From Alphaproteobacteria bacterium (GTDB lineage Bacteria > Pseudomonadota > Alphaproteobacteria > UBA828), in contig CBDEFM010000002.1 in assembly GCA_965237415.1 (NCBI GenBank), positions 3,648,001 to 3,712,000 on the forward strand: a stretch of 64,000 nt of DNA, in the 5' to 3' direction. A model generated the notes under the pieces. It did not search any database. It was not told the DNA's origin and worked only from the letters and a program-made list of their open reading frames with translations. Of this stretch, positions 12,004-54,863 are shown in pieces. Made by a program: the position numbers and the translations under genes. Positions within the stretch are counted from its first letter, which is position 1; the number at the start of each line of letters is the position of its first letter.

Positions 12004-12293
12004 AAAGCCAGGCAGCAGTTCGGCTCTCAAACGCGGGTCGTTGCTGCGCGTGTAAGGCAGGCGCCGCCGCCGATTTGTACGCCGGACATGCCGGTCAGGA
12101 AACGAACGCGGTGCCGTTCACGTCCGCGTGCGCTGGTTCTTGATTCTTGATGATTCCCAATAAATTCCCAACTGTCGATGCCAGGCGGGAGCCTGCAGTG
12201 TTGTTAAGCGATGGAGTGGACGCCCCCTTCCGGCGGCATGGCAATGTGCCATGTTGGCGGTGTCGTCAACGCCAAGAGAGGAAAGGGGCATCC

Positions 12294-13322
12294 ATGGAAC
12301 GGGTTAGCATGATCGGGATCGATCTGGCAAAGAACAGCTTTCAAGCTCACGGTGCGCGGGCGGACGGTTCGGTTGCGTTCCGCAGGAAGCTGAGTCGGGC
12401 GAAGATTTTGGATTTTATGGCCTCACAGCCGCGCTGCACGGTAGTGATGGAGGCGTGTGCCAGCGCCCATTACTGGGGCCGGGAGATCGGCGGTCTAGGC
12501 CATGCGGTGCGACTGATCCCTCCGGTTTATGTCAAAGCCTACGTCAAGCGGCAAAAGAACGACGCGGCCGACGCCGAGGCGATATGCGAGGCGGCATCGC
12601 GGCCGACCATGAGTTTCGTGGCGGTGAAGACGAAGGAGCAGCAGGCGCGGGGCATGCTGTTCCGGACACGCGATCTTCTGGTGCGCCAGCGCACACAGAC
12701 GATCAACGCGCTGCGCGGCCATCTGGCGGAGTTCGGCGTTGTTGCGCCCAAGGGGCCGGTCCATATCGATCGCCTGGCGTCGGCGCTTGAGGATCAGGTC
12801 TCGGACCTGCCGGAGGCGGTCTGCGCGCTGGGTGGCCTTCTGTTTGAGCAGATTGAAGGTCTCAATGGGAAGATCGGAGACTTGGAGCGGGAGACCCATA
12901 CGGCTGCGCGGCAGGATGAGGACGTGCAACGGCTTATGACCGTGCCAGGGATCGGGCCGATCACCGCGATGGCGATCCAAGCCTTCGCGCCGCCGATGGA
13001 GAGCTTCCAGCGGGGTCGCGACTTCTCTGCCTGGCTGGGCCTCGTACCGCGCCAGCACACGACCGGCGGCAAGCCGAGATTGGGCAAGATATCGAAGATG
13101 GGTCAGCGCGATCTTCGGCGGCTGCTGATCACGGGCGCCATGGCGGTTGTGCGCTGGTCGGTCCGGCGTGGCAGGACAGACGATCCGTGGCTCGCCAGGA
13201 TGCTGGCGTGCAAGCCGCGGATGCTTGTCGCAGTGGCGCTGGCCAACCGGATGGCGCGTATCGTCTGGGCGCTGATGACGAAGAAGGAGATCTACCGGGC
13301 TCCCGCGCTCGAAGCCGCCTGA
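12294..13322 (+). CDS. IS110 family transposase
   Basis: IGIDLAK, MEAC, KNDAADA (DEDD), GLVPRQHTTGGK motifs. Confidence 0.95.
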   Translation: MERVSMIGIDLAKNSFQAHGARADGSVAFRRKLSRAKILDFMASQPRCTVVMEACASAHYWGREIGGLGHAVRLIPPVYVKAYVKRQKNDAADAEAICEAASRPTMSFVAVKTKEQQARGMLFRTRDLLVRQRTQTINALRGHLAEFGVVAPKGPVHIDRLASALEDQVSDLPEAVCALGGLLFEQIEGLNGKIGDLERETHTAARQDEDVQRLMTVPGIGPITAMAIQAFAPPMESFQRGRDFSAWLGLVPRQHTTGGKPRLGKISKMGQRDLRRLLITGAMAVVRWSVRRGRTDDPWLARMLACKPRMLVAVALANRMARIVWALMTKKEIYRAPALEAA

Positions 13323-13575
13323 GAGGGTGGCAAAGCGCGGGTAGCCGTCGGGGATGCGGGCAGGTCGGAGGACAGGCAAGGGCAAACGGTCGACGAGACG
13401 GGATCGGGAAACCCAGCTTTGCGCGGAGAGCTTTCGAGCTCGCATAAGCGATTTGGACCCGGTCCGCGCATCTCCATGAGGGCCCGCGGCGTGTGACGTG
13501 CCGCATCGAGAGGCCGGACACACGACAGAACCTGACCGAATGTGCCGAGCCGACCAAAGAAACCGCTTGCGTCTA
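13323..13575 (+). ncRNA. Putative bridge/seek RNA of IS1111 copy 1
   Basis: Contains TAAGCG (13445-13450) and GCGCG (13421-13425) matching the target flanks, and ACACACG (13518-13524) matching the element right end; boundaries approximate. Confidence 0.7.
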
Positions 13576-13898
13576 CGGGGGCGTCCACACACGCGCCTTG
13601 TTGACCCCCCGCAATGCAGCAAGATCAATGAATTACTGCGCCGATCGGCGCCGAACCTACGCGCCGAGCAACACGCGGGTGCCGTCTCGGGTCCGGTGCG
13701 TCTTCCATAGTCTGCACTGCTGCTATGTAGACTCTGCGATGTCCGGCACAATATAGCACACTAACCAGCATTCAATACACATGGGCATAGTATCCTTCCC
13801 TCTCCATAACGCAGCTTGGCTCAACCAGAAAGCATATGGTCCCCGCAAATGTCCCATCCACCCAGAGACCGTCCCTTTGCATAGTATGGCATCGCAAT

Positions 13899-15087
13899 CT
13901 AGTCACCTGGCACTGAAGTAAGGCTCAGTGTAGGCTGTTCATCGTGGTGTGGCTGTGGAGGTCATTGCGATGGCGCGTGGTACTGGCCGGCCGATGGCGG
14001 TCTTGGTTCTGAGCGATGAAGAGCGGTCGTATCTTGAGCGTCAGGCTCGACGGCGCCGGGTCGCGCGCTCGATCTCCGATCGCTGCCGCATGATCCTGCG
14101 CTGCGCAGACGGCCTGACCAACAAGGCGGTGGCAGCCGAGATCGGCGTGCACGAGCACACGGTCGGCAAGTGGCGCCGCCGCTTCCTGAAGGAGCGCATC
14201 GAGGGGCTGTCGGATGAGCCTCGGCCGGGACGGCCGCGAACGCTCACGGACGATCAGGTGGCCAAGGTTGTCGAGCGGACGCTCAGCGCGACGCCGGCGG
14301 ACGCCACCCATTGGTCGTTGCGCTCGATGGCCAGGGAAAGCGGCCTTTCGCACACGACGATCTGGCGCATCCGGGGCGCCTTCGGCTTGCAGCCGCACCG
14401 CTCGGAGACCTTCAAGCTGTCGGGCGATCCGCACTTCGTGGACAAGGTCCGCGACATCGTTGGGCTCTATCTCTCGCCGCCGGACCGCGCGCTGGTGCTC
14501 TGCGTCGACGAGAAGAGCCAGATCCAGGCGCTCGACCGTACACAGCCGGTCCTGCCGATGCTGCCGGGCATGCCTGAGCGGCGCACACACGACTACAAGC
14601 GTCACGGCACCACCTCGCTGTTCGCAGCCCTCGATGTCGCCACGGGCCGGGTCATCGGCAAGTGCTACAGGCGCCACCGGGCCAGGGAGTTTCTCGACTT
14701 CCTGAAAGAGATCGACCGCTCGGTCCCCGAGGGGCTGGACGTCCACATCGTCATGGACAATTACGCCACTCACAAGACCGCGGCGGTCAAGGCTTGGCTG
14801 GCGCGGCGAGCGCACTGGCATGTCCACTTCACGCCGACGTCGGCGTCCTGGATCAATCAGGTCGAACGCTGGTTCGCCGAGTTGACGCGAAAGCAGTTGC
14901 AGCGCGGCGTGCACACCTCCACCCGCCAGCTCGAAGCCGATATCCGGGCCTTCATCGAAAAGCACAACGAAGACCCCAAGCCCTTCAGGTGGACCAAATC
15001 GGCCGACGACATCCTCGCCGCCGTCAAACGCTTCTGCCTCCGCGTCGATCAAAACTTATGCCACGAACTTTAGATTCAGGTGACTAG
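13899..15087 (+). mobile_element. IS630 family element (transposase 13970-15073)
   Basis: [32 protein letters not shown] motifs; ends CTAGTCACCTG...CAGGTGACTAG. Confidence 0.95.
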
Positions 15088-20879: not shown

Positions 20880-21365
20880 CTAACCCCTTGTCAGAGCCAG
20901 CCGGCCGACATGAGCCGGTCCCTTGGGCGCAATCACGCCGAACTCCGCCAAGTGGCTCCGCGGCGCATTAATCGTCTGCGTGCGCGGGCGCACCAGAAGA
21001 TCGCGCGCGCGGAATAGCATCGCCTGGGCCTGCTGATCCTGCGTCTTCACCGCCACGAAGCGTTTCGTCGGCCGCTGCGCGTCCTCGCAGATTGCTTCCG
21101 CGTCAGCCGCGTCGTTCTTCTGTCGCTTCACGAACGGCTTGACGTAGATCGGCGGGACCAACCTCACATCATAGCCAAGCTCCTGGAGCTCCCGGCCCCA
21201 GTGGTGTGCACTCGCGCACGCCTCCATCGCCACCACACACCGGGGCTGCGAAACCAGAAAGCCTACAAGCTTCTCCCGGCTTAGCTTCTTGCGGAACGCA
21301 ACCGATCCGTCCGTCCGAGACCCGCGCAACTGAAAGCTGCGCTTCGCCAAGTCGATCCCATCAAC
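20880..21365 (-). pseudogene. IS110 transposase N-terminal fragment
   Basis: GIDLAK, MEAC, KNDAADA; no ends visible. Confidence 0.9.
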
Positions 21366-22611: not shown

Positions 22612-22984
22612 ATTGATCCTTGACTGCCCGGCGCGGTCCGTATTGTCGGGACGGCTGGTCTCGGGCGCATATGCCAGCCGCGGGAGCGGCCGGAACGGGT
22701 GGAGTTGCTTGTTTCCGGGTCTGAAGCGACGCAAGCTCGTTGCGTCGCGGGCCCGGAAAATGATTTACACGGGCTACATGTGCTCTCGGGCCGGCAATGT
22801 CAATGCCCGCCACCGCCTACGCCAACTTTACGGAGCCGGCACAGGTCCGGAACATGGAACTCGGCCATCTGGTCGACGCCTCGGCCGTGGCGGCCGGATT
22901 GAGGAACAATTCCGCTCCCCGATACGGGAAGGACGTAAGCGTTCGGCGGCCGGGGGATCGAAGGGACGAGGGCGGCATTTGCAC

Positions 22985-23025
22985 TGGTAACGATTCCGGC
23001 CATGCGCTACCGTCGAGCGCATGGC
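22985..23025 (+). promoter_or_regulatory. Candidate leaderless promoter with a stem-loop sequestering the transposase ATG
   Basis: TGGTAA-17 bp-TACCGT-7 bp-ATG; 10-bp stem 22999-23008/23016-23025; identical spacing in the diverged copy at ~52805-52850. Confidence 0.55.
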
Positions 23026-25411
23026 GATTCGCGAGGATTTTGGCGCAGCTCTGACGCTGGTTGATGGCGGCGATGGGACTTGGTCGCCTGTCGAGGCGGC
23101 GCCGGCGCACGCGCGGCGCGATTGGCAGCCCCTATACGAGCAAGAACGTGCGCGGGCGGAGGCGGCCGAAGCGCGCTGTGAGGAGCTGCGCCGGGCGGAG
23201 TTGGCCTCTCGTTCCCGGGCCGGTTCGCTGAAGTCGCAGCTCGACGCCAGCCGGAACAAGCTGAAGGCGGCCGCGGAGGAGATCAGGGAAGTCCGCCGCA
23301 CGGCGAAGAACGCCCTTGCCTTGCAGGCCGAAGTGACGCGCCTGGAGAAGCTCCTTTCGGAAGCCGGCGTCGAATCGAGCAAGCGCAGCACGATCATGTC
23401 CCTGCGCAAGGAGGTCGCTCGGCTGCGTGCGGCCGTGCCGGCGTCGGAGGCCTGTCGGCCGCGCGGGGCTCGGAGGCGATCGCGGAACCCCGAGGAGACG
23501 ATCGCGTCGCTGCGCGAGGAGAACGCCCGGCTGAAGAAGGAGGTGCGTGCGGCGAAGGACCTGGAGGGCAGGGTCAAGTTCCTGGACCGCGAGATCGACA
23601 ATCACCGCTCCTGGCTGCGGGGGTCGCACGACCACATTCAGCGGCTCGAGGCCCGGCATCGCGACGAGATCGATTGGTTGAAGAAGGACATGGCCTGGAT
23701 GCGCGCGGCGTTCGTTGGGGCAGCGGACGATCGCAACCGCACGATCGCGTCGCTGCGCAAGCAACTCGACCGGCGGCGCGCGGCGGCCGTGCGGTTGGTG
23801 GAGGCCCGGGAGCGCACGATCGCCTGGCTGCGCGAGCGGAACGAGCGGCTGCGGGCGGCGACCGTGCGGGCCACGGACATGATCGTGTCGCTGCGCGAGA
23901 AGATCGCTGGGCTGCGCGCCCAGGTGCGGGCTTTGGAGGTCGAGAAGAAGGCGCTGGTGTCCCGCGTCGAGACGCTGGAAGCCCAGCTTGCGAAGCTCCG
24001 CGCGAGCCGGGCCGTGCTGTCGAAGTCGCTGTTCGGGAGAAAGAGCGAGCGGCAGAAGAAACCGCGCTCCGGGCGCAAGCGCGGTCAGCAGCGTGGCGCT
24101 CCCGGCCATGGCCGCACGCAGCGGCCCGGGCTCGAGGAGCGCACTGAAGAGCATAACCCGCCCGAGGATGCGTGCGTCTGTTCCTGTTGCGGGAAGCCCT
24201 ATGCTGCCAACGGCGAGCGTTCCACGACCATCGTCGAGATCGAGGTCAAGGCCCACATGCGCAGAATCGTCCGGCCCCGCTGGCGCCGGAGTTGCGACTG
24301 CCCATCGTCGCCGCTGGAAGTGACGGCACCCCCGGTGCCGCGCCTGTTCGACAACACGCCCTACGGCATCAGCGTGTGGGTGTGCATCTTCTTCGAGCGC
24401 TTTGCCTGCTACCGCCCGCTCAAGCGGGTCGCAGCATGGCTGGCGAATATGGGGCTGCCGATCTCGCCGGGGACGCTGGCCGACAGTGTGAAGCGCTCCG
24501 TGCCGCTGTTCGAGCCCGTGGCCGAGGCGATCCTCGCGCACCAGAACAAGGCGGCGGTGCGCCATGCAGACGAGACCACATGGCGTGTGCAGGCGCTTCG
24601 CGAGAAGGGCCGCTCCAGCCGAGCCTGGCTCTGGACCTCGGTCAGCGCCGACGCGGTCTACTTCCACATCGATCCCTCGCGCTCAGCCGAGGTCGCGAAG
24701 GCCCTGTTCGGCGGCGTCATCGGTGTCGTGTTCCTGGTCTGCGACCGCCTCTCGACCTACAAGAGGCTGGCCCGAGAGCTCGACGGCAAGGTGATCCTCC
24801 AGTGGTGTTGGGCGCACCAGCGCAGATCGTTTATCGACTGTGCCGCCGGCCACGTGCGGCTCACCCGCTGGTGCCAGGGATGGATCGAGCGGATCGCAGC
24901 GATCTACCGGCTGAACGATGCGCGGCTGGAGCATTACGACCCCGCTCTCGAACGCCAGACACCAGAGTTCGACGCGGCGCAGGGCGAGCTGAACAAGGCG
25001 GTCGACGACCTGTTCGCGGACACCGAAGCGGAACTGGCCGGCCTGTCGGCCAAGGCGCTCAGGGCCAAGCCGCTGCGCTCGCTGCTCAACCACCGCGAGG
25101 GGCTGAGCGTCTTCGTCGATCACCCGCAGGTGCCGCCCGATAACAACCGCGCCGAGCTTGCCCTCAGGAGTGCGGTCATAGGACGACAGCTCTCGTTCGG
25201 TTCCGACAGCGAGACCGGCGCCAGGTTCACGGCCATGATGTACTCGGTGGCGGGCACGCTCGCCATGAACGGCATCGATGTTCGGCGCTGGCTCGAGGAA
25301 TGGCTGTCAGCGTGCGCGAAAAATGGCGGAAAACCGCCGGACGACCTGTCGCCCTGGCTGCCATGGTCGATGAGCGAGGGCCGCAGGCGTGCTCTCGCGG
25401 CGCCGGGATGA
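23021..25411 (+). CDS. IS66 family transposase with long coiled-coil N-terminus
   Basis: LFGRKSER, CSCCG zinc finger, ADET, CD...Y, CWAHQRR, DNNRAELALR. Confidence 0.93.
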   Translation: MAIREDFGAALTLVDGGDGTWSPVEAAPAHARRDWQPLYEQERARAEAAEARCEELRRAELASRSRAGSLKSQLDASRNKLKAAAEEIREVRRTAKNALALQAEVTRLEKLLSEAGVESSKRSTIMSLRKEVARLRAAVPASEACRPRGARRRSRNPEETIASLREENARLKKEVRAAKDLEGRVKFLDREIDNHRSWLRGSHDHIQRLEARHRDEIDWLKKDMAWMRAAFVGAADDRNRTIASLRKQLDRRRAAAVRLVEARERTIAWLRERNERLRAATVRATDMIVSLREKIAGLRAQVRALEVEKKALVSRVETLEAQLAKLRASRAVLSKSLFGRKSERQKKPRSGRKRGQQRGAPGHGRTQRPGLEERTEEHNPPEDACVCSCCGKPYAANGERSTTIVEIEVKAHMRRIVRPRWRRSCDCPSSPLEVTAPPVPRLFDNTPYGISVWVCIFFERFACYRPLKRVAAWLANMGLPISPGTLADSVKRSVPLFEPVAEAILAHQNKAAVRHADETTWRVQALREKGRSSRAWLWTSVSADAVYFHIDPSRSAEVAKALFGGVIGVVFLVCDRLSTYKRLARELDGKVILQWCWAHQRRSFIDCAAGHVRLTRWCQGWIERIAAIYRLNDARLEHYDPALERQTPEFDAAQGELNKAVDDLFADTEAELAGLSAKALRAKPLRSLLNHREGLSVFVDHPQVPPDNNRAELALRSAVIGRQLSFGSDSETGARFTAMMYSVAGTLAMNGIDVRRWLEEWLSACAKNGGKPPDDLSPWLPWSMSEGRRRALAAPG

Positions 25412-26289
25412 CCGGCGAGATCGAGTGCCGCTATTACGGGCGCGAGTTCACCGCCGAAGAGATGGCGCTTCTGCGCGTCCTGGTGGCCGGTCCCGCGCGG
25501 CTCACCCGCCATGCCCTGTCGAAGGAGTTTTGCCGGCACATCGGCTGGTTCAGGCCCGACGGCGGGCTCAAGGACATGATGGCCAGGGTCACCATGCTGG
25601 CCATGCACAGGGACGGCCTGATCACCCTGCCGCCGCCCAGGTGGCAGCAGGGCCAGCAAAAGCCGATTGTCTTCGGGCCTGACACCGAAACGCCGCTGTT
25701 CCCGGCGCCGACAACCCTCGACGAAGTCCGCCCGCTCGAACTGCGCACCGTCGTGCGCGGCACCCGCGAGGGCAAGCTGTGGAACGAGTTCATCGCCCGC
25801 TACCACTATCTCGGCTACAAGACCCTGGTCGGCGCCCAGATGCGCTACGCCGTCCACGACCGAAACGGCTGGCCGCTCGCCATGCTCGGCTTCAGCACCG
25901 CGGCCTGGAAGCTCGCGCCGCGCGACAGCTTCATCGGATGGACACAACAGAAGCGCGAGAAGAACCTCCCCCTCGTGGTCGACAACCCGAGGTTCCTGAT
26001 CCTGCCCTGGATCAAGATCCCCAATCTCGGCTCGCACATTCTCGCCATCGTCCGCCGCCGCCTGCCCGAGGACTGGACCGAGCGCTACAACACCACCCCC
26101 GTGCTCATCGAGACCTTCGTCCAGACCCCGCGCTTCACCGGCGCTGTCTACAAGGCCTCCGGCTGGATCCGTGTCGGAACCACCCAGGGACGCGGCCGCT
26201 ACGACAGGTACAGCAAACGCGACCAGCCGAAGAAGGACATCTGGCTCCGGCCTCTCCGGAGGGATTGGAAGCGAACCCTCAATCGGTAA
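25408..26289 (+). CDS. DUF4338 / DruA-like protein
   Basis: YHYLG, RDSFIGW, NPRFLILPW, IETFV, GAVYKASGW motifs; ATGA overlap with the transposase stop. Confidence 0.85.
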   Translation: MTGEIECRYYGREFTAEEMALLRVLVAGPARLTRHALSKEFCRHIGWFRPDGGLKDMMARVTMLAMHRDGLITLPPPRWQQGQQKPIVFGPDTETPLFPAPTTLDEVRPLELRTVVRGTREGKLWNEFIARYHYLGYKTLVGAQMRYAVHDRNGWPLAMLGFSTAAWKLAPRDSFIGWTQQKREKNLPLVVDNPRFLILPWIKIPNLGSHILAIVRRRLPEDWTERYNTTPVLIETFVQTPRFTGAVYKASGWIRVGTTQGRGRYDRYSKRDQPKKDIWLRPLRRDWKRTLNR

Positions 26290-26417
26290 AATCCCCCGGC
26301 CGCCGAACGCTTACGGAAGGACACCTCGAACGTAAGCGTTCGGCGGCCGGGGGATCGAAGGGACGAGGGCGGCATTTGCACTGGTAACGATTCCGGCCAT
26401 GCGCTACCGTCGAGCGC

Positions 26418-28808
26418 ATGGCGATTCGCGAGGATTTTGGCGCAGCTCTGACGCTGGTTGATGGCGGCGATGGGACTTGGTCGCCTGTCGAGGCGGCGCC
26501 GGCGCACGCGCGGCGCGATTGGCAGCCCCTATACGAGCAAGAACGTGCGCGGGCGGAGGCGGCCGAAGCGCGCTGTGAGGAGCTGCGCCGGGCGGAGTTG
26601 GCCTCTCGTTCCCGGGCCGGTTCGCTGAAGTCGCAGCTCGACGCCAGCCGGAACAAGCTGAAGGCGGCCGCGGAGGAGATCAGGGAAGTCCGCCGCACGG
26701 CGAAGAACGCCCTTGCCTTGCAGGCCGAAGTGACGCGCCTGGAGAAGCTCCTTTCGGAAGCCGGCGTCGAATCGAGCAAGCGCAGCACGATCATGTCCCT
26801 GCGCAAGGAGGTCGCTCGGCTGCGTGCGGCCGTGCCGGCGTCGGAGGCCTGTCGGCCGCGCGGGGCTCGGAGGCGATCGCGGAACCCCGAGGAGACGATC
26901 GCGTCGCTGCGCGAGGAGAACGCCCGGCTGAAGAAGGAGGTGCGTGCGGCGAAGGACCTGGAGGGCAGGGTCAAGTTCCTGGACCGCGAGATCGACAATC
27001 ACCGCTCCTGGCTGCGGGGGTCGCACGACCACATTCAGCGGCTCGAGGCCCGGCATCGCGACGAGATCGATTGGTTGAAGAAGGACATGGCCTGGATGCG
27101 CGCGGCGTTCGTTGGGGCAGCGGACGATCGCAACCGCACGATCGCGTCGCTGCGCAAGCAACTCGACCGGCGGCGCGCGGCGGCCGTGCGGTTGGTGGAG
27201 GCCCGGGAGCGCACGATCGCCTGGCTGCGCGAGCGGAACGAGCGGCTGCGGGCGGCGACCGTGCGGGCCACGGACATGATCGTGTCGCTGCGCGAGAAGA
27301 TCGCTGGGCTGCGCGCCCAGGTGCGGGCTTTGGAGGTCGAGAAGAAGGCGCTGGTGTCCCGCGTCGAGACGCTGGAAGCCCAGCTTGCGAAGCTCCGCGC
27401 GAGCCGGGCCGTGCTGTCGAAGTCGCTGTTCGGGAGAAAGAGCGAGCGGCAGAAGAAACCGCGCTCCGGGCGCAAGCGCGGTCAGCAGCGTGGCGCTCCC
27501 GGCCATGGCCGCACGCAGCGGCCCGGGCTCGAGGAGCGCACTGAAGAGCATAACCCGCCCGAGGATGCGTGCGTCTGTTCCTGTTGCGGGAAGCCCTATG
27601 CTGCCAACGGCGAGCGTTCCACGACCATCGTCGAGATCGAGGTCAAGGCCCACATGCGCAGAATCGTCCGGCCCCGCTGGCGCCGGAGTTGCGACTGCCC
27701 ATCGTCGCCGCTGGAAGTGACGGCACCCCCGGTGCCGCGCCTGTTCGACAACACGCCCTACGGCATCAGCGTGTGGGTGTGCATCTTCTTCGAGCGCTTT
27801 GCCTGCTACCGCCCGCTCAAGCGGGTCGCAGCATGGCTGGCGAATATGGGGCTGCCGATCTCGCCGGGGACGCTGGCCGACAGTGTGAAGCGCTCCGTGC
27901 CGCTGTTCGAGCCCGTGGCCGAGGCGATCCTCGCGCACCAGAACAAGGCGGCGGTGCGCCATGCAGACGAGACCACATGGCGTGTGCAGGCGCTTCGCGA
28001 GAAGGGCCGCTCCAGCCGAGCCTGGCTCTGGACCTCGGTCAGCGCCGACGCGGTCTACTTCCACATCGATCCCTCGCGCTCAGCCGAGGTCGCGAAGGCC
28101 CTGTTCGGCGGCGTCATCGGTGTCGTGTTCCTGGTCTGCGACCGCCTCTCGACCTACAAGAGGCTGGCCCGAGAGCTCGACGGCAAGGTGATCCTCCAGT
28201 GGTGTTGGGCGCACCAGCGCAGATCGTTTATCGACTGTGCCGCCGGCCACGTGCGGCTCACCCGCTGGTGCCAGGGATGGATCGAGCGGATCGCAGCGAT
28301 CTACCGGCTGAACGATGCGCGGCTGGAGCATTACGACCCCGCTCTCGAACGCCAGACACCAGAGTTCGACGCGGCGCAGGGCGAGCTGAACAAGGCGGTC
28401 GACGACCTGTTCGCGGACACCGAAGCGGAACTGGCCGGCCTGTCGGCCAAGGCGCTCAGGGCCAAGCCGCTGCGCTCGCTGCTCAACCACCGCGAGGGGC
28501 TGAGCGTCTTCGTCGATCACCCGCAGGTGCCGCCCGATAACAACCGCGCCGAGCTTGCCCTCAGGAGTGCGGTCATAGGACGACAGCTCTCGTTCGGTTC
28601 CGACAGCGAGACCGGCGCCAGGTTCACGGCCATGATGTACTCGGTGGCGGGCACGCTCGCCATGAACGGCATCGATGTTCGGCGCTGGCTCGAGGAATGG
28701 CTGTCAGCGTGCGCGAAAAATGGCGGAAAACCGCCGGACGACCTGTCGCCCTGGCTGCCATGGTCGATGAGCGAGGGCCGCAGGCGTGCTCTCGCGGCGC
28801 CGGGATGA
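26418..28808 (+). CDS. IS66 family transposase (copy 2)
   Basis: Same translation as 23021-25411. Confidence 0.93.
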   Translation: MAIREDFGAALTLVDGGDGTWSPVEAAPAHARRDWQPLYEQERARAEAAEARCEELRRAELASRSRAGSLKSQLDASRNKLKAAAEEIREVRRTAKNALALQAEVTRLEKLLSEAGVESSKRSTIMSLRKEVARLRAAVPASEACRPRGARRRSRNPEETIASLREENARLKKEVRAAKDLEGRVKFLDREIDNHRSWLRGSHDHIQRLEARHRDEIDWLKKDMAWMRAAFVGAADDRNRTIASLRKQLDRRRAAAVRLVEARERTIAWLRERNERLRAATVRATDMIVSLREKIAGLRAQVRALEVEKKALVSRVETLEAQLAKLRASRAVLSKSLFGRKSERQKKPRSGRKRGQQRGAPGHGRTQRPGLEERTEEHNPPEDACVCSCCGKPYAANGERSTTIVEIEVKAHMRRIVRPRWRRSCDCPSSPLEVTAPPVPRLFDNTPYGISVWVCIFFERFACYRPLKRVAAWLANMGLPISPGTLADSVKRSVPLFEPVAEAILAHQNKAAVRHADETTWRVQALREKGRSSRAWLWTSVSADAVYFHIDPSRSAEVAKALFGGVIGVVFLVCDRLSTYKRLARELDGKVILQWCWAHQRRSFIDCAAGHVRLTRWCQGWIERIAAIYRLNDARLEHYDPALERQTPEFDAAQGELNKAVDDLFADTEAELAGLSAKALRAKPLRSLLNHREGLSVFVDHPQVPPDNNRAELALRSAVIGRQLSFGSDSETGARFTAMMYSVAGTLAMNGIDVRRWLEEWLSACAKNGGKPPDDLSPWLPWSMSEGRRRALAAPG

Positions 28809-29686
28809 CCGGCGAGATCGAGTGCCGCTATTACGGGCGCGAGTTCACCGCCGAAGAGATGGCGCTTCTGCGCGTCCTGGTGGCCGGTCCCGCGCGGCTC
28901 ACCCGCCATGCCCTGTCGAAGGAGTTTTGCCGGCACATCGGCTGGTTCAGGCCCGACGGCGGGCTCAAGGACATGATGGCCAGGGTCACCATGCTGGCCA
29001 TGCACAGGGACGGCCTGATCACCCTGCCGCCGCCCAGGTGGCAGCAGGGCCAGCAAAAGCCGATTGTCTTCGGGCCTGACACCGAAACGCCGCTGTTCCC
29101 GGCGCCGACAACCCTCGACGAAGTCCGCCCGCTCGAACTGCGCACCGTCGTGCGCGGCACCCGCGAGGGCAAGCTGTGGAACGAGTTCATCGCCCGCTAC
29201 CACTATCTCGGCTACAAGACCCTGGTCGGCGCCCAGATGCGCTACGCCGTCCACGACCGAAACGGCTGGCCGCTCGCCATGCTCGGCTTCAGCACCGCGG
29301 CCTGGAAGCTCGCGCCGCGCGACAGCTTCATCGGATGGACACAACAGAAGCGCGAGAAGAACCTCCCCCTCGTGGTCGACAACCCGAGGTTCCTGATCCT
29401 GCCCTGGATCAAGATCCCCAATCTCGGCTCGCACATTCTCGCCATCGTCCGCCGCCGCCTGCCCGAGGACTGGACCGAGCGCTACAACACCACCCCCGTG
29501 CTCATCGAGACCTTCGTCCAGACCCCGCGCTTCACCGGCGCTGTCTACAAGGCCTCCGGCTGGATCCGTGTCGGAACCACCCAGGGACGCGGCCGCTACG
29601 ACAGGTACAGCAAACGCGACCAGCCGAAGAAGGACATCTGGCTCCGGCCTCTCCGGAGGGATTGGAAGCGAACCCTCAATCGGTAA
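28805..29686 (+). CDS. DUF4338 / DruA-like protein (copy 2)
   Basis: Same translation as 25408-26289. Confidence 0.85.
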   Translation: MTGEIECRYYGREFTAEEMALLRVLVAGPARLTRHALSKEFCRHIGWFRPDGGLKDMMARVTMLAMHRDGLITLPPPRWQQGQQKPIVFGPDTETPLFPAPTTLDEVRPLELRTVVRGTREGKLWNEFIARYHYLGYKTLVGAQMRYAVHDRNGWPLAMLGFSTAAWKLAPRDSFIGWTQQKREKNLPLVVDNPRFLILPWIKIPNLGSHILAIVRRRLPEDWTERYNTTPVLIETFVQTPRFTGAVYKASGWIRVGTTQGRGRYDRYSKRDQPKKDIWLRPLRRDWKRTLNR

Positions 29687-29814
29687 AATCCCCCGGCCGC
29701 CGAACGCTTACGGAAGGACACCTCGAACGTAAGCGTTCGGCGGCCGGGGGATCGAAGGGACGAGGGCGGCATTTGCACTGGTAACGATTCCGGCCATGCG
29801 CTACCGTCGAGCGC

Positions 29815-32205
29815 ATGGCGATTCGCGAGGATTTTGGCGCAGCTCTGACGCTGGTTGATGGCGGCGATGGGACTTGGTCGCCTGTCGAGGCGGCGCCGGC
29901 GCACGCGCGGCGCGATTGGCAGCCCCTATACGAGCAAGAACGTGCGCGGGCGGAGGCGGCCGAAGCGCGCTGTGAGGAGCTGCGCCGGGCGGAGTTGGCC
30001 TCTCGTTCCCGGGCCGGTTCGCTGAAGTCGCAGCTCGACGCCAGCCGGAACAAGCTGAAGGCGGCCGCGGAGGAGATCAGGGAAGTCCGCCGCACGGCGA
30101 AGAACGCCCTTGCCTTGCAGGCCGAAGTGACGCGCCTGGAGAAGCTCCTTTCGGAAGCCGGCGTCGAATCGAGCAAGCGCAGCACGATCATGTCCCTGCG
30201 CAAGGAGGTCGCTCGGCTGCGTGCGGCCGTGCCGGCGTCGGAGGCCTGTCGGCCGCGCGGGGCTCGGAGGCGATCGCGGAACCCCGAGGAGACGATCGCG
30301 TCGCTGCGCGAGGAGAACGCCCGGCTGAAGAAGGAGGTGCGTGCGGCGAAGGACCTGGAGGGCAGGGTCAAGTTCCTGGACCGCGAGATCGACAATCACC
30401 GCTCCTGGCTGCGGGGGTCGCACGACCACATTCAGCGGCTCGAGGCCCGGCATCGCGACGAGATCGATTGGTTGAAGAAGGACATGGCCTGGATGCGCGC
30501 GGCGTTCGTTGGGGCAGCGGACGATCGCAACCGCACGATCGCGTCGCTGCGCAAGCAACTCGACCGGCGGCGCGCGGCGGCCGTGCGGTTGGTGGAGGCC
30601 CGGGAGCGCACGATCGCCTGGCTGCGCGAGCGGAACGAGCGGCTGCGGGCGGCGACCGTGCGGGCCACGGACATGATCGTGTCGCTGCGCGAGAAGATCG
30701 CTGGGCTGCGCGCCCAGGTGCGGGCTTTGGAGGTCGAGAAGAAGGCGCTGGTGTCCCGCGTCGAGACGCTGGAAGCCCAGCTTGCGAAGCTCCGCGCGAG
30801 CCGGGCCGTGCTGTCGAAGTCGCTGTTCGGGAGAAAGAGCGAGCGGCAGAAGAAACCGCGCTCCGGGCGCAAGCGCGGTCAGCAGCGTGGCGCTCCCGGC
30901 CATGGCCGCACGCAGCGGCCCGGGCTCGAGGAGCGCACTGAAGAGCATAACCCGCCCGAGGATGCGTGCGTCTGTTCCTGTTGCGGGAAGCCCTATGCTG
31001 CCAACGGCGAGCGTTCCACGACCATCGTCGAGATCGAGGTCAAGGCCCACATGCGCAGAATCGTCCGGCCCCGCTGGCGCCGGAGTTGCGACTGCCCATC
31101 GTCGCCGCTGGAAGTGACGGCACCCCCGGTGCCGCGCCTGTTCGACAACACGCCCTACGGCATCAGCGTGTGGGTGTGCATCTTCTTCGAGCGCTTTGCC
31201 TGCTACCGCCCGCTCAAGCGGGTCGCAGCATGGCTGGCGAATATGGGGCTGCCGATCTCGCCGGGGACGCTGGCCGACAGTGTGAAGCGCTCCGTGCCGC
31301 TGTTCGAGCCCGTGGCCGAGGCGATCCTCGCGCACCAGAACAAGGCGGCGGTGCGCCATGCAGACGAGACCACATGGCGTGTGCAGGCGCTTCGCGAGAA
31401 GGGCCGCTCCAGCCGAGCCTGGCTCTGGACCTCGGTCAGCGCCGACGCGGTCTACTTCCACATCGATCCCTCGCGCTCAGCCGAGGTCGCGAAGGCCCTG
31501 TTCGGCGGCGTCATCGGTGTCGTGTTCCTGGTCTGCGACCGCCTCTCGACCTACAAGAGGCTGGCCCGAGAGCTCGACGGCAAGGTGATCCTCCAGTGGT
31601 GTTGGGCGCACCAGCGCAGATCGTTTATCGACTGTGCCGCCGGCCACGTGCGGCTCACCCGCTGGTGCCAGGGATGGATCGAGCGGATCGCAGCGATCTA
31701 CCGGCTGAACGATGCGCGGCTGGAGCATTACGACCCCGCTCTCGAACGCCAGACACCAGAGTTCGACGCGGCGCAGGGCGAGCTGAACAAGGCGGTCGAC
31801 GACCTGTTCGCGGACACCGAAGCGGAACTGGCCGGCCTGTCGGCCAAGGCGCTCAGGGCCAAGCCGCTGCGCTCGCTGCTCAACCACCGCGAGGGGCTGA
31901 GCGTCTTCGTCGATCACCCGCAGGTGCCGCCCGATAACAACCGCGCCGAGCTTGCCCTCAGGAGTGCGGTCATAGGACGACAGCTCTCGTTCGGTTCCGA
32001 CAGCGAGACCGGCGCCAGGTTCACGGCCATGATGTACTCGGTGGCGGGCACGCTCGCCATGAACGGCATCGATGTTCGGCGCTGGCTCGAGGAATGGCTG
32101 TCAGCGTGCGCGAAAAATGGCGGAAAACCGCCGGACGACCTGTCGCCCTGGCTGCCATGGTCGATGAGCGAGGGCCGCAGGCGTGCTCTCGCGGCGCCGG
32201 GATGA
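29815..32205 (+). CDS. IS66 family transposase (copy 3)
   Basis: Same translation as 23021-25411. Confidence 0.93.
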   Translation: MAIREDFGAALTLVDGGDGTWSPVEAAPAHARRDWQPLYEQERARAEAAEARCEELRRAELASRSRAGSLKSQLDASRNKLKAAAEEIREVRRTAKNALALQAEVTRLEKLLSEAGVESSKRSTIMSLRKEVARLRAAVPASEACRPRGARRRSRNPEETIASLREENARLKKEVRAAKDLEGRVKFLDREIDNHRSWLRGSHDHIQRLEARHRDEIDWLKKDMAWMRAAFVGAADDRNRTIASLRKQLDRRRAAAVRLVEARERTIAWLRERNERLRAATVRATDMIVSLREKIAGLRAQVRALEVEKKALVSRVETLEAQLAKLRASRAVLSKSLFGRKSERQKKPRSGRKRGQQRGAPGHGRTQRPGLEERTEEHNPPEDACVCSCCGKPYAANGERSTTIVEIEVKAHMRRIVRPRWRRSCDCPSSPLEVTAPPVPRLFDNTPYGISVWVCIFFERFACYRPLKRVAAWLANMGLPISPGTLADSVKRSVPLFEPVAEAILAHQNKAAVRHADETTWRVQALREKGRSSRAWLWTSVSADAVYFHIDPSRSAEVAKALFGGVIGVVFLVCDRLSTYKRLARELDGKVILQWCWAHQRRSFIDCAAGHVRLTRWCQGWIERIAAIYRLNDARLEHYDPALERQTPEFDAAQGELNKAVDDLFADTEAELAGLSAKALRAKPLRSLLNHREGLSVFVDHPQVPPDNNRAELALRSAVIGRQLSFGSDSETGARFTAMMYSVAGTLAMNGIDVRRWLEEWLSACAKNGGKPPDDLSPWLPWSMSEGRRRALAAPG

Positions 32206-33083
32206 CCGGCGAGATCGAGTGCCGCTATTACGGGCGCGAGTTCACCGCCGAAGAGATGGCGCTTCTGCGCGTCCTGGTGGCCGGTCCCGCGCGGCTCACC
32301 CGCCATGCCCTGTCGAAGGAGTTTTGCCGGCACATCGGCTGGTTCAGGCCCGACGGCGGGCTCAAGGACATGATGGCCAGGGTCACCATGCTGGCCATGC
32401 ACAGGGACGGCCTGATCACCCTGCCGCCGCCCAGGTGGCAGCAGGGCCAGCAAAAGCCGATTGTCTTCGGGCCTGACACCGAAACGCCGCTGTTCCCGGC
32501 GCCGACAACCCTCGACGAAGTCCGCCCGCTCGAACTGCGCACCGTCGTGCGCGGCACCCGCGAGGGCAAGCTGTGGAACGAGTTCATCGCCCGCTACCAC
32601 TATCTCGGCTACAAGACCCTGGTCGGCGCCCAGATGCGCTACGCCGTCCACGACCGAAACGGCTGGCCGCTCGCCATGCTCGGCTTCAGCACCGCGGCCT
32701 GGAAGCTCGCGCCGCGCGACAGCTTCATCGGATGGACACAACAGAAGCGCGAGAAGAACCTCCCCCTCGTGGTCGACAACCCGAGGTTCCTGATCCTGCC
32801 CTGGATCAAGATCCCCAATCTCGGCTCGCACATTCTCGCCATCGTCCGCCGCCGCCTGCCCGAGGACTGGACCGAGCGCTACAACACCACCCCCGTGCTC
32901 ATCGAGACCTTCGTCCAGACCCCGCGCTTCACCGGCGCTGTCTACAAGGCCTCCGGCTGGATCCGTGTCGGAACCACCCAGGGACGCGGCCGCTACGACA
33001 GGTACAGCAAACGCGACCAGCCGAAGAAGGACATCTGGCTCCGGCCTCTCCGGAGGGATTGGAAGCGAACCCTCAATCGGTAA
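32202..33083 (+). CDS. DUF4338 / DruA-like protein (copy 3)
   Basis: Same translation as 25408-26289. Confidence 0.85.
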   Translation: MTGEIECRYYGREFTAEEMALLRVLVAGPARLTRHALSKEFCRHIGWFRPDGGLKDMMARVTMLAMHRDGLITLPPPRWQQGQQKPIVFGPDTETPLFPAPTTLDEVRPLELRTVVRGTREGKLWNEFIARYHYLGYKTLVGAQMRYAVHDRNGWPLAMLGFSTAAWKLAPRDSFIGWTQQKREKNLPLVVDNPRFLILPWIKIPNLGSHILAIVRRRLPEDWTERYNTTPVLIETFVQTPRFTGAVYKASGWIRVGTTQGRGRYDRYSKRDQPKKDIWLRPLRRDWKRTLNR

Positions 33084-33248
33084 AATCCCCCGGCCGCCGA
33101 ACGCTTACCCTCGAACCGCTGCCGCCATCTTGATTTCCCCAGCTCATGGCCGGCATACATGTGCCGACTCTGTGTTGACAGTTCGTTTTGGCATGCCAGA
33201 ATGGGAATCGAAAACTCCGAAAACTTCAATGTTTCCGGGTGGTTGAGC

Positions 33249-43725: not shown

Positions 43726-43815
43726 TTGTTAAGCGCGCTAAACTGACCCCCACGAATCAAACTAAAACAATGAGTTAGAGCGCCGATCGGCGGGGAACTG
43801 TCGCGCTTAACAACA
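43724..43815. mobile_element. 92-bp IS21-like mini-element
   Basis: 14-bp perfect IR TGTTGTTAAGCGCG; internal TGACCCC. Confidence 0.8.
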
Positions 43816-52444: not shown

Positions 52445-52945
52445 CGCTTACGAACGTTCACGGTAAGTGTTCGTTCAGGCCGTGGAATCAGCGCGGGCGT
52501 TTCAATCCGCCCCGGCGGATTTTAACGATTGAGGGTGCGTTTCCAGTCCCGTCGCAGGGGCCGGAGCCAGACATCCTTTTTCGGCTTGTCGTACTGCCTG
52601 TCCCGGTCGTAGCGCCCGCGCCCTTGGGTGGCGCCGACATGGATCCAGCCCGATGCCCTGTAGACCGCGCCGGTATATCGCGGGGTCTCTACGAAAGTCT
52701 CGATGAGCACCGGCGTGGTGTTGTAGCGCTCGGTCCAGTCCTCGGGCAGGCGCCGGCGGATGCCCTCGACCAGCGTCAGGTCGGTGCCAAAATCCTCGTC
52801 CAGAACCGCCATGCGCACGACGATAGCGCATGGCAAATTGCGTTACCAGCAGAAAGACAGCCCCTTGTGGGGCTTCGCCTCAACGTGGGAGATGCGCTTG
52901 ACGGCACCCATTCCACGGCCTGAACGAACGTGTGTGGACGCCCCC

Positions 52946-53197
52946 GTTGATGCAAGCAGTTTTTGGTCGGCTCGGTGCATGCGGTCAGGTGCTGTCGTGT
53001 GTCCGGCCTCTCTATGCGGCAGATGACACGCCGCGGGCCCGTATGGAGATGCGCGGATTGGGTCCAAATCGCTTACGCGAGCTTGAAAGCTCTCCGTTCG
53101 GATGCTGGTTTTCCCGACCCGGTCTCGTTGACCTTTGCCCTTACCTGTCCTCCGTCCTGCCCACATCCCCGACGGCTTCCCGCACTTCGCCGTTCTC
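52946..53197 (-). ncRNA. Putative bridge/seek RNA of IS1111 copy 2
   Basis: GTAAGCG (53070-53076) and CGAACG (53095-53100) on the minus strand match the target GTAAGCG/TTCG. Confidence 0.72.
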
Positions 53198-54220
53198 TCA
53201 GGCGGCGGCGGGAGCCCGGTAGCTCTCCTTCGTCGTCAGTAGCGCCCAGACGATGCGCGCCATCCTGTTGGCCAGCACCACCGCGACGAGCATCCTCGGC
53301 TTGCGCGCCAGCATCCCGGCCAGCCAGGGGTCCGTCGTTACGCCGCGCCGAACCGCCCAGCGGACGACAGTCATCGCGCCCGTGATCAAGAGCCGTCTCA
53401 AATCGCGCTGGCCCATCTTCGATATCTTGCCCAGCTTCGGCTTGCCGCCCGTCGTGTGCTGGCGCGGCACGAGGCCGAGCCAAGCGGAGAAGTCGCGACC
53501 GCGCCGGAAACTCTCCATCGGCGGTGCGAAGGCCTGGATCGCCATCGCGCTGATCGGCCCGATCCCCGGCACGCTCATCAGGCGCCTTGCCTCCTCATCC
53601 TGCCGTGCACTCACGTGGATCTCCCTCTCCAGGCCCGCAATCTTCGCATCGAGGCCGGCGATTTGCTCAAGCAGAAGGCCGCCCAGCTCGCGGACCGCTT
53701 CCGGCAACCCCGAAGCCGGTCCCTCAAGCGCCGAGGCCAGCCGGCCGACATGAGCCGGCGCCTGCGGGGCAACGATACCGAACTCCGCCAAATGGCCGCG
53801 CAGCGCATTAATCGTCTGGGTGCGCTGGCGCACCAGAAGATCGCGCGTCCGGAACAGCATGCCCCGAGCCTGCTGTTCCTCCGTCTTCACAGCTACAAAG
53901 CGCATGGTCGGCCGCGACGACGCCTCGCAGATCGCCTCCGCGTCCGACGCGTCGTTCTTTTGCCGCTTCACATACGCTTTGACGTAGATCGGCGGGACCA
54001 GTCGCACCGCATGACCGAGACTGCCGATCTCCCGGCCCCAATGGTGCGCGCCACCGCACGCCTCCATCGCCACCGTGCAGCGTGGCTGCGCAGCCACAAA
54101 GTCCAACAACTTCGCCCGGCTCACCTTCTTGCGGAACGCTACCGACCCGTCCGCCCGCGCACCGTGCAGCTGAAAGCTGTTCTTCGCCAGATCGATCCCG
54201 ATCATGTTAACCTGTCCCAT
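53198..54220 (-). CDS. IS110 family transposase
   Basis: IGIDLAK, MEAC, KNDASDA, QHTTGGK. Confidence 0.95.
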   Translation of the reverse strand: MGQVNMIGIDLAKNSFQLHGARADGSVAFRKKVSRAKLLDFVAAQPRCTVAMEACGGAHHWGREIGSLGHAVRLVPPIYVKAYVKRQKNDASDAEAICEASSRPTMRFVAVKTEEQQARGMLFRTRDLLVRQRTQTINALRGHLAEFGIVAPQAPAHVGRLASALEGPASGLPEAVRELGGLLLEQIAGLDAKIAGLEREIHVSARQDEEARRLMSVPGIGPISAMAIQAFAPPMESFRRGRDFSAWLGLVPRQHTTGGKPKLGKISKMGQRDLRRLLITGAMTVVRWAVRRGVTTDPWLAGMLARKPRMLVAVVLANRMARIVWALLTTKESYRAPAAA

Positions 54221-54863
54221 GGACGCCCCCTTCCTCGCTTGGTGTTTAACAACACCGCCAACCTGGCACATCGCGATGCCGTCGGGAGGGGCGTCCACCC
54301 CATCGCTTACCCGTGACGCGATGGCGGAATCGCGGCTCGGTCGGGCGGCGGGACAAGTGCGGACGCGCGGGGCCGTATGTTGGATTCAATCCGGTTACGT
54401 TATGAAGACGGGATACGGGCGGGGGTAAACAGCAGAATTTTGAGAGGACTGATTAATTTTTGAATTACAATCGATTAGAATTGCAACATGCGTAGGAACC
54501 TTCAATATTGCGGCACAAGATTGGCAAACACTGAGAATCGAAGCGACGCGCGCGTCTGACGGCCCTTGGCAACGGCGTCGCCCGGAGGTGCCGGGGCGCG
54601 GAGACGAGAGCCAACGAGGGGCCTTCGTCGGCCGCCGTGCTCGTGAGCGGGGAGACGGCATAGCACGAGCAAGCGGGGTCGCGACTGTCGGCTGACTGAA
54701 CAGGTGTGAGCGGCGCGGCGAGGTCCTCCGGCCCAGCCCCCTGCGGCGAGGCCAGCGGTGCAAGTGGTCTTATCCGATCGATCTCGGACGGCCGGAGGAG
54801 CGCGCATTCGACGGAGTTTGAGAGGCGGCGGCAGTCATGAAGCCGGCGCCCTCAAGAGATAAA

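Follow-up and report, generated by a model that had tools for sequence, protein, structure and literature searches.

The 64,000-nucleotide stretch analysed here (assembly GCA_965237415.1, Alphaproteobacteria bacterium, lineage UBA828; contig CBDEFM010000002.1, positions 3,648,001 to 3,712,000; hereafter the window, whose numbering is used unless a position is prefixed C1 or C2) carries two complete insertion sequences (IS) of the IS1111 group of the IS110 family. Copy 1 occupies positions 12211-13593 on the + strand (1383 bp) and copy 2 positions 52929-54303 on the - strand (1375 bp), and the features described below lie on the strand of their element. The copies are 84% identical in DNA and 83% in protein. 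Each harbors an intact transposase gene (12294-13322, 342 aa, in copy 1; 53198-54220, 340 aa, in copy 2), whose product combines the N-terminal DEDD, RuvC-like domain PF01548 (E = 2.2e-15 in copy 1 and 8.5e-16 in copy 2) with the C-terminal domain PF02371 (E = 2.5e-23 and 4e-22, respectively). The NCBIfam model NF033542, 'IS110 family RNA-guided transposase', recognizes these proteins with 313-321 bits (312.8 bits for copy 1) at a cut-off of 140. The motif GLVPRQHTTG is invariant in the three transposases of this genome (342, 340 and 341 aa) and fits the GL-P----S/TG signature that defines IS1111 transposases according to the sections of Siddiquee et al. (2024, PMC11187229) compared here; the lengths fall within the range of 330-350 aa. 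Together with the subterminal repeats and the long 3' non-coding region (NCR) described below, these properties bear out the assignment to IS110/IS1111 proposed in an earlier first-pass annotation of the window. As to the structure of the recombinase, the nearest solved relatives by sequence are remote (phmmer E = 2.2e-12 for ISCro4, 9t56, and 1.7e-9 for IS621, 8wt6), and the sequence search found no solved structure of an IS1111-type enzyme.

The boundaries of the elements could be set to the base. To the left, the likeness between the two copies stops precisely at ...TAAG-CG, and to the right at ...CACACA-CG; contigs from other samples diverge from the copy 1 locus at 12198-12210 and after 13593, one of them directly after the latter position. 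Thus copy 1 does not extend over 12199-13673, as the first-pass annotation had it. Its left target TTAAG (12204-12208) and the core CG (12209-12210) precede a left end (12211-12227) made of the 6-nt extension ATGGAG and the subterminal inverted repeat TGGACGCCCCC, a layout shared by relatives; the right end (13577-13593) consists of the subterminal repeat GGGGGCGTCCA, the extension CACA and the core CG (CACA-CG, 13588-13593), and is followed by the right target CGCC (13594-13597), which opens a repeat of ~95 bp with paralogues elsewhere in the genome. In copy 2, the left target GTAAG (54306-54310) and the core CG (54304-54305) are the outermost bases of an IS66-type terminal repeat, the left end (54288-54303) comprises the subterminal repeat and the 6-nt extension ATGGGG, the right end (52931-52945) the extension CACA and the subterminal repeat, and the core CG (52929-52930) and right target TTCG (52925-52928) belong to the terminal repeat of a decayed IS66-type element. 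The subterminal inverted repeat of both copies, TGGACGCCCC, is 10-11 bp long, within the range of 7-17 bp given for the IS1111 group; it stands, as TGGACGCCCC(C), 6 nt from the left end, while its complement stands 4 nt plus the core from the right end, and the same arrangement at both ends was found in 64 of 80 related loci. The non-coding DNA of copy 1 amounts to 83 nt upstream of the transposase gene and to 271 nt downstream of it, i.e., the longer region is on the 3' side; in each copy this 3' NCR measures about 270 nt and runs into the complementary subterminal repeat, the 4-nt extension and CG.

The dinucleotide CG is present at both junctions of every copy in this genome. Both target sites have empty paralogues in the same genome, namely ...AAG-CG-CGCCTTGTTGACC (AAG-CG-CGCC) for copy 1 and ...GTAAG-CG-TTCGTTCAGGCC (GTAAG-CG-TTCG) for copy 2. 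These sites are uninterrupted and carry the core only once, which supports the 2-bp CG core postulated in the first-pass annotation. Insertion was sequence-specific in both cases, and duplication of the target is limited to the shared core dinucleotide. For copy 2 the own-genome paralogue had to serve as the empty site, no orthologue of its left flank having been found in 40 other genomes; likewise, the exact empty site of copy 1 is not given by the orthologous loci of two genomes of the same genus (G014 and G001), which are alike only to about position 12199.

Predicted target and donor guides in the 3' non-coding region

The 3' NCR of both copies contains a conserved hairpin with a variable segment on each side, of which the 5' one is the reverse complement of the core plus the right flank, and the 3' one repeats the left flank plus the core (CG). 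In copy 1 these segments are GCGCG (13421-13425; right-target guide, the reverse complement of the core plus CGC) and TAAGCG (13445-13450; left-target guide), separated by the distal hairpin of the target loop, GAGC/GCTC (13428-13441); in copy 2 they are CGAACG (53095-53100) and GTAAGCG (53070-53076). All the strings quoted in the first-pass annotation were located in the window for both copies, although the match it described for copy 1 had to be trimmed: TAAG plus CG and CG plus CGC (9 bp) do agree with the flanks, whereas the first T of TTAAG faces an A, and the fourth base of the right flank is unmatched. Since the target loops of the two copies differ, so do their sites, TAAG-CG-CGC in the ~95-bp repeat for copy 1 versus GTAAG-CG-TTCG at the tip of an IS66-family repeat for copy 2; the proposal of natural retargeting between the two paralogues is upheld by this covariation of guides and flanks.

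As single matches of 5-7-nt words prove little, the relation of guides to flanks was tested by position across homologues. Relatives were taken from a scan of public genomes (the best 80 of 545); element ends could be set by the subterminal repeat in 64 of these 80 loci and in four copies of the genome under study, the remaining 16 loci having no end pair recognizable by pattern or lying at contig ends. The last 235 nt of the resulting 68 elements align well except for two short blocks that flank the hairpin and two blocks further on. The guide windows were fixed relative to the conserved hairpin and a conserved TTTGG, with no knowledge of the flanks, and seven non-core positions were compared in the 63 elements with both flanks (the other five had less than 9 nt of a flank), which provide 56 distinct guide pairs after merging of identical rows, as was done for the donor and fold counts as well. 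For the right guide three registers were allowed, in cognate and non-cognate pairs alike. Under these conditions the left guide matches its own left flank at 4.75 of the seven positions on average, versus 1.86 for the flanks of other elements, and the right guide matches its own right flank at 5.29 positions, versus 2.76. The observed total of 562 matches was reached in none of 10,000 re-pairings, the highest of which gave 325. Among the 56 sites, the own site of copy 2 ranks first alone and that of copy 1 first in a tie with two others. The covariation over homologues and their flanks, which the first-pass annotation had named as a check, is seen at the level of the family.

An instructive case is an element at a different locus, L012, which is 96.7% identical to copy 2 over 1375 nt. 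In the target-binding loop and distal hairpin, the only difference between them is GTAACCG in place of GTAAGCG (a G to C change in the left guide), and L012 sits in GTAAC-CG where copy 2 sits in GTAAG-CG; thus the target is changed at the very base that matches the changed base of the guide. The reverse situation, identical guides at unrelated sites, which the first-pass annotation would have taken as a refutation, was not met with in L013, L014 and L015, which represent one IS at three loci of one genome: each is within GTAAG-CG-TCCGGT, although the left-hand sequence further out is unlike in all three (the right-hand sequence is common to L014 and L015). Finally, a third IS1111 type of the genome under study carries the guide AGACTCG and is located at AGACT-CG. 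Such natural covariation, the one-base step included, supports retargeting by means of guide changes.

Two further segments of the NCR match the ends of the element itself. In copy 1, the right-donor guide CTCCAT (13472-13477) is the reverse complement of the left-end extension ATGGAG, and the left-donor guide ACACACG (13518-13524) equals the right-end extension plus the core. Copy 2 has the same two words, ACACACG at 52996-53002 and CTCCAT at 53043-53048. Of the donor-end matches claimed earlier for both copies, those of ACACACG stand in each and that of CTCCAT stands in copy 1, while in copy 2 CTCCAT has one mismatch to the actual left end ATGGGG. Among 62 distinct NCRs, the donor-loop 7-mer is identical to the right-end extension plus core in 57 and differs by one base in five, a result that none of 10,000 permutations attained. 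As read from this guide in the 62 distinct relatives, the core is CG in 34, TG in 27 and AG in one; CA is carried by two right ends among the relatives.

The predicted RNA and its competing readings

In copy 1, the guides fall within a predicted bridge RNA, or long seekRNA, at 13388-13539, in which an outer stem closes a target-binding and a donor-binding arm (consensus fold of 59-61 sequences). RNAalifold was run on 61 rows and on 59 rows, the badly aligned L085 being left out; both runs recover the helices of the two arms, and the outer closing stem, which comes from the 61-row run only, was added by hand to the 29-pair structure used for pair counts. The target arm begins with a long and then a short stem, which lead to an internal loop; the right-target guide occupies the 5' side of this loop and the left-target guide its 3' side, and the arm is capped by a small hairpin. 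The donor arm is built of a GGCC/GGCC stem and a GCGGC/GCCGC hairpin, with the left-end guide 5' and the right-end guide 3' of them. In the 29-pair structure 96.9% of the cells pair, versus 19.6-46.2% when partners are slid by 1-3 columns, 14 of the 29 pairs show changes on both sides (one pair of the distal hairpin occurs as AU 25, UA 10, GC 9 and CG 9 times), and none of 500 shuffles reaches any of the five fold measures. Rfam found no family at the gathering score in the window except a tRNA and nothing meaningful at E <= 10 on 13300-13620; it appears that Rfam 15 has no model fitting this RNA.

Taken together, these data lead us to regard both loci as IS1111-group elements of the IS110 family with a downstream two-arm bridge RNA or long seekRNA of ~150 nt that directs the choice of target, a reading to which we assign a probability of roughly 0.9. 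In the mechanism that we propose, a common outer stem would close the two arms; the internal loop of the first arm would carry the right-target guide on its 5' side, and that of the second arm one guide for the left end and another for the right end plus the core. By analogy with ISEc11 and IS621, the element may excise as a circle with the junction right end-CG-left end, and the recombinase-RNA complex would pair this junction with a target sharing the CG core and exchange strands there. The sequences show the anatomy of the elements and the covariation of guides with targets, of guides with ends and of the paired bases of the fold; that the NCR is transcribed, that its RNA binds the transposase and that the elements are active at present is what we infer.

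Several observations weigh against this reading. The left-end guide fits only loosely (16 exact cases among 62 NCRs, 36 with one mismatch and 10 with more) and has no complement of the core. In the third IS type, the left end AGGGAG mismatches its own donor guide, and the right-target guide leaves the core unpaired and binds the 7 nt that follow it, i.e., with a 2-nt shift of register. The 9-bp guide word of copy 1 occurs 26 times in the genome, where the IS is present once, and a contig from run X4 has a right end more than 95% alike, followed by TGCGCTG, which fits the right guide of copy 1 only at the core; the guide sequence belonging to that contig could not be linked to its right end. 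As for the fold, the energies of single sequences do not stand out from those of shuffled ones (copy 1, z = -0.78; copy 2, z = -0.98), so that the structural support is of a comparative kind only, and the minimum-energy fold of copy 2 is unlike the consensus. Eight RNA-library runs contain part of the stretch, but the element is present in them as assembled contigs only, which cannot prove transcription, and the Logan contigs of runs X1, X4, X17 and X19 showed no joints, starts, ends or circle junction, the parts that they do not cover being uninformative. The coding strand inside copy 1 has no sigma-70-like promoter, and the candidate promoter across the predicted circle junction is weak (6-7 of 12 consensus positions).

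Of the other explanations, the best one accepts the matches as true footprints of past RNA-guided insertion and takes copies 1 and 2 for relics that are now immobile. Each type is indeed found once in the genome despite several perfect unoccupied sites, which for copy 2 include six IS66 terminal repeats only 20 kb off in the window, and the left end of copy 2 mismatches its donor guide. However, neither transposase gene is damaged, and nothing is missing from the ends, the subterminal repeats or the RNA fold; other samples contain elements of more than 95% likeness with at least five different left contexts, all distinct from the present one, and L012 represents recent movement of the copy 2 type. 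We therefore consider immobility unlikely, though by no means far-fetched. Much less probable is a role of the internal target and end copies as DNA, either as protein-bound sites or in att-type pairing of DNA with DNA. It would agree with the RNA-library evidence consisting of contigs and with the failure to find an internal promoter on the coding strand of copy 1. Nevertheless, the segments are located in the loops of a fold maintained by compensatory changes in 14 pairs, which is expected of RNA and not of duplex DNA; one segment is sense and the other antisense, as pairing of an RNA with two strands needs; and in relatives, according to the sections of PMC11187229 compared, the NCR RNA co-purifies with the transposase and its reprogramming retargets insertion. 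Finally, chance occurrence of 5-7-nt words in GC-rich DNA, with an NCR unrelated to target choice, may draw on the shortness of each single match, on copy 1 matching at only 4 of 7 non-core positions on each side and on its common 9-mer, but is practically negligible and refuted at the family level, as the matches occupy homologous alignment columns in 56 distinct guide pairs with no equal among the re-pairings, the guide windows were set by the hairpin and TTTGG and not by the flanks, copy 2 and L012 changed in concert at one base, and the donor-loop 7-mer tracks the right end.

The RNA-guided reading agrees with what has been described for related systems; the mechanism and the architecture are already published, and the elements considered here are further members of a known system. 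According to the parts of the two key papers that were compared, IS1111 elements encode their seekRNA in the 3' NCR; this RNA is recovered together with the transposase in two sizes, about 80 and 150 nt, its top-strand match precedes the bottom-strand match, and it has been reprogrammed, ISEc11 and ISXne4 forming a natural re-directed pair (Siddiquee et al., 2024, PMC11187229); Durrant et al. (2024, PMC11208160) defined four guides and a common core, and for 93% of IS1111 elements they predict a bridge RNA, located in the right end. Like ISEc11/ISXne4, ISPa11, ISKpn4 and ISPst6 in the former paper, our elements combine subterminal repeats and a long 3' NCR with a DEDD transposase that measures 330-350 aa and contains the GL-P----S/TG motif. 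Their top-strand match likewise precedes the bottom-strand match, with an overlap at the insertion point. Hence, the placing of the right-target guide before the left-target one, which the first-pass annotation had singled out, is real but follows the published IS1111 rule. Re-direction through altered target-matching segments is also shared with ISEc11/ISXne4; however, those are 72% identical in amino acids, whereas the pair in the window is closer (83%), and one-base retargeting is seen in a 96.7%-identical element. In contrast to the sections of PMC11187229 that were compared, which deal with target matches only, a second loop of the longer RNA covaries clearly here with the ends of the element. 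It may be that the two-arm IS1111 RNA, or these very elements, are already to be found in Supplementary Figs 6-9 of Siddiquee et al. or in Extended Data Fig. 10c and Supplementary Table 5 of Durrant et al.

With the IS621 bridge RNA, as presented in the parts of PMC11208160 compared, the predicted RNA shares two loops, the target-binding one being 5' of the donor-binding one, each of which pairs with both strands around a shared 2-nt core, and the recombinases have the same two Pfam domains. In contrast to IS621, the RNA is in the 3' (right) end and not in the 5' one, the order of guides within each loop is reversed, long subterminal repeats (10-11 bp) are present, and the proteins resemble each other only remotely; IS621 has a CT core, whereas that of our elements is CG and that of relatives may be TG, CA or AG.

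Our understanding of the mechanism, described in 2024, is unchanged by these elements. Their value is in forming a natural series, in which close IS1111 relatives have one conserved RNA scaffold of ~150 nt, target loops that differ by anything from one base to a whole guide, cores CG, TG, CA or AG, and a donor loop that tracks the element ends almost perfectly. Such a series should be of use for choosing or engineering IS1111-type recombinases and for annotating target sites. The one-base retargeting step and the targeting of the ends of other mobile elements seem most worth following up.

Landing sites and other mobile elements

The 11-mer composed of the copy 2 target occurs seven times in the genome, versus 1.7 expected. 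One occurrence is the empty paralogue with the same right flank (C1:647213), while the other six are the 24-bp terminal inverted repeats, two each, of three IS66-family elements at 22935-33108, all six being perfect and unoccupied matches to the copy 2 guides. These three elements are identical (3380 bp) and arranged in direct tandem at a spacing of 3397 bp, with 17 bp between copies; their terminal repeats begin with GTAAGCGTTCGG. They encode a transposase of 796 aa with an internal series of 34-nt repeats (PF03050, E = 8.7e-56), and a second, DruA-like open reading frame (PF14236). A DruA-like fragment is also contained in the right flank of copy 2, so that this copy is situated within a decayed element of the IS66 type, 7 bp from its tip. 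A Tn3-type terminal repeat, considered as the target of copy 2, was ruled out, since Pfam assigns the host element to the IS66 family. Just upstream of the IS66 tandem, at about 20896-21363 (C2:3668896-3669363), there is a further fragment of a transposase gene of IS1111 type with apparent damage of the frame; over query positions 106-574 its identity with copy 1 is 77%.

The choice of such sites is not restricted to copy 2: along with it, L013-L015, L058 and L068 have as their target the outermost 11-13 bp of IS66-family terminal repeats, and in the right flank of L014 a gene for an IS66 transposase terminates about 25 nt before the insertion point is reached, only the C-terminus being encoded there. 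A known IS1111-group element likewise homes to one fixed position within the terminal inverted repeat of Tn21-family transposons, but the host here is an IS66-family IS, and the site of insertion lies 7 bp in from the repeat's outer tip. As for IS1111 elements directed at IS66 repeats, a literature search yielded six papers, none of which names any of these subjects in its title or abstract; this does not prove that such elements are unpublished. It may be that this clade systematically directs its guides to the ends and RNA genes of other mobile elements, a tentative idea that we hold to be possible rather than probable, the alternative being incidental landings. If true, it would mean RNA-guided homing of element against element, which tracks variants of the host repeat through single-base changes of the guide. 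The use of the ends of other transposons (IS66-family repeats, ends of sibling IS1111 elements) as landing pads bears in any case on the coexistence of IS in one genome.

Several insertions into sibling IS1111 elements were noted. The guides of L010 match GCAAA-CG-GTCAA, and this element is inserted in that conserved 5' stretch of the bridge-RNA gene of a sibling (L017 type), with flanks at about 1120-1125 and 2495-2540; the RNA gene of one IS thus serves as the target of another RNA-guided IS. A lineage with the right guide CTATGGAC, known from two genomes (L023 and the fragment C2:1562026-1562359 of the genome under study), sits inside the right subterminal repeat and extension of a sibling IS1111, the sites being GGGGG-CG-TCCATAGACG and ...CG-TCCACAGATG.

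Copy 1 lies near the left end of the ~95-bp repeat, of which at least five fuller paralogues exist in the genome. Members of this family have imperfect terminal inverted repeats GTGTTG...CAACAC and were found at about 43744-43815 in the window, at C2:74560, 3412326, 197483 and 1586057, and at C1:283211. An integron attC as the target of copy 1 was rejected by eye, since the polarity of the repeat is GTT...AAC and not ...AAC...GTT. In the orthologous loci of G014 and G001 the ~95-bp repeat is missing, and past about position 12199 the sequence runs into a tRNA-like gene; as these loci have neither the repeat nor the IS, the repeat and the IS together constitute an insertion. In the window, by contrast, about 12199/12200 is followed by the ~95-bp repeat, by copy 1 and by a transposase gene of IS630 type (13949-15073; PF13358 and helix-turn-helix domains); this difference in content suggests that the point is the boundary of an island. 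In run X17, the left-target guide of one contig is altered at two bases, and the left flank of another contig is the same as at the empty site C2:74560; these contigs could not be linked to each other, and we draw no conclusion from them.

The genome also contains four fragments and the third IS1111 type mentioned above, 76% identical in DNA, in three copies (L003-L005; C2:1800797-1802177, 98763-100143 and 2245606-2246986). The surroundings of these copies are identical over 1.4-3.2 kb; the host repeat exceeds 3 kb and carries, next to the IS, a gene that, judging from its translation, looks like an istA of IS21 type, and the IS itself lies within a long palindrome some 140 bp from the end of this repeat. 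Because the three copies share at least 1.4 kb of flank, they were counted as one insertion event, and this IS has probably been spread by its host repeat. Diverged empty paralogues of the palindromic target are found at C2:197285, 1273716 and 1849867, and at the first of these (C2:197285-197483) a copy of the ~95-bp repeat lies 40 nt from the palindrome.

Unusual junctions were observed in three relatives. In L062, a 10-nt duplicate of the element's own tip stands between the right end and the point where the IS66-type repeat resumes, and in L046 and L077 the right end adjoins part of the non-coding region of a sibling; all of these look like products of nested or aberrant recombination.

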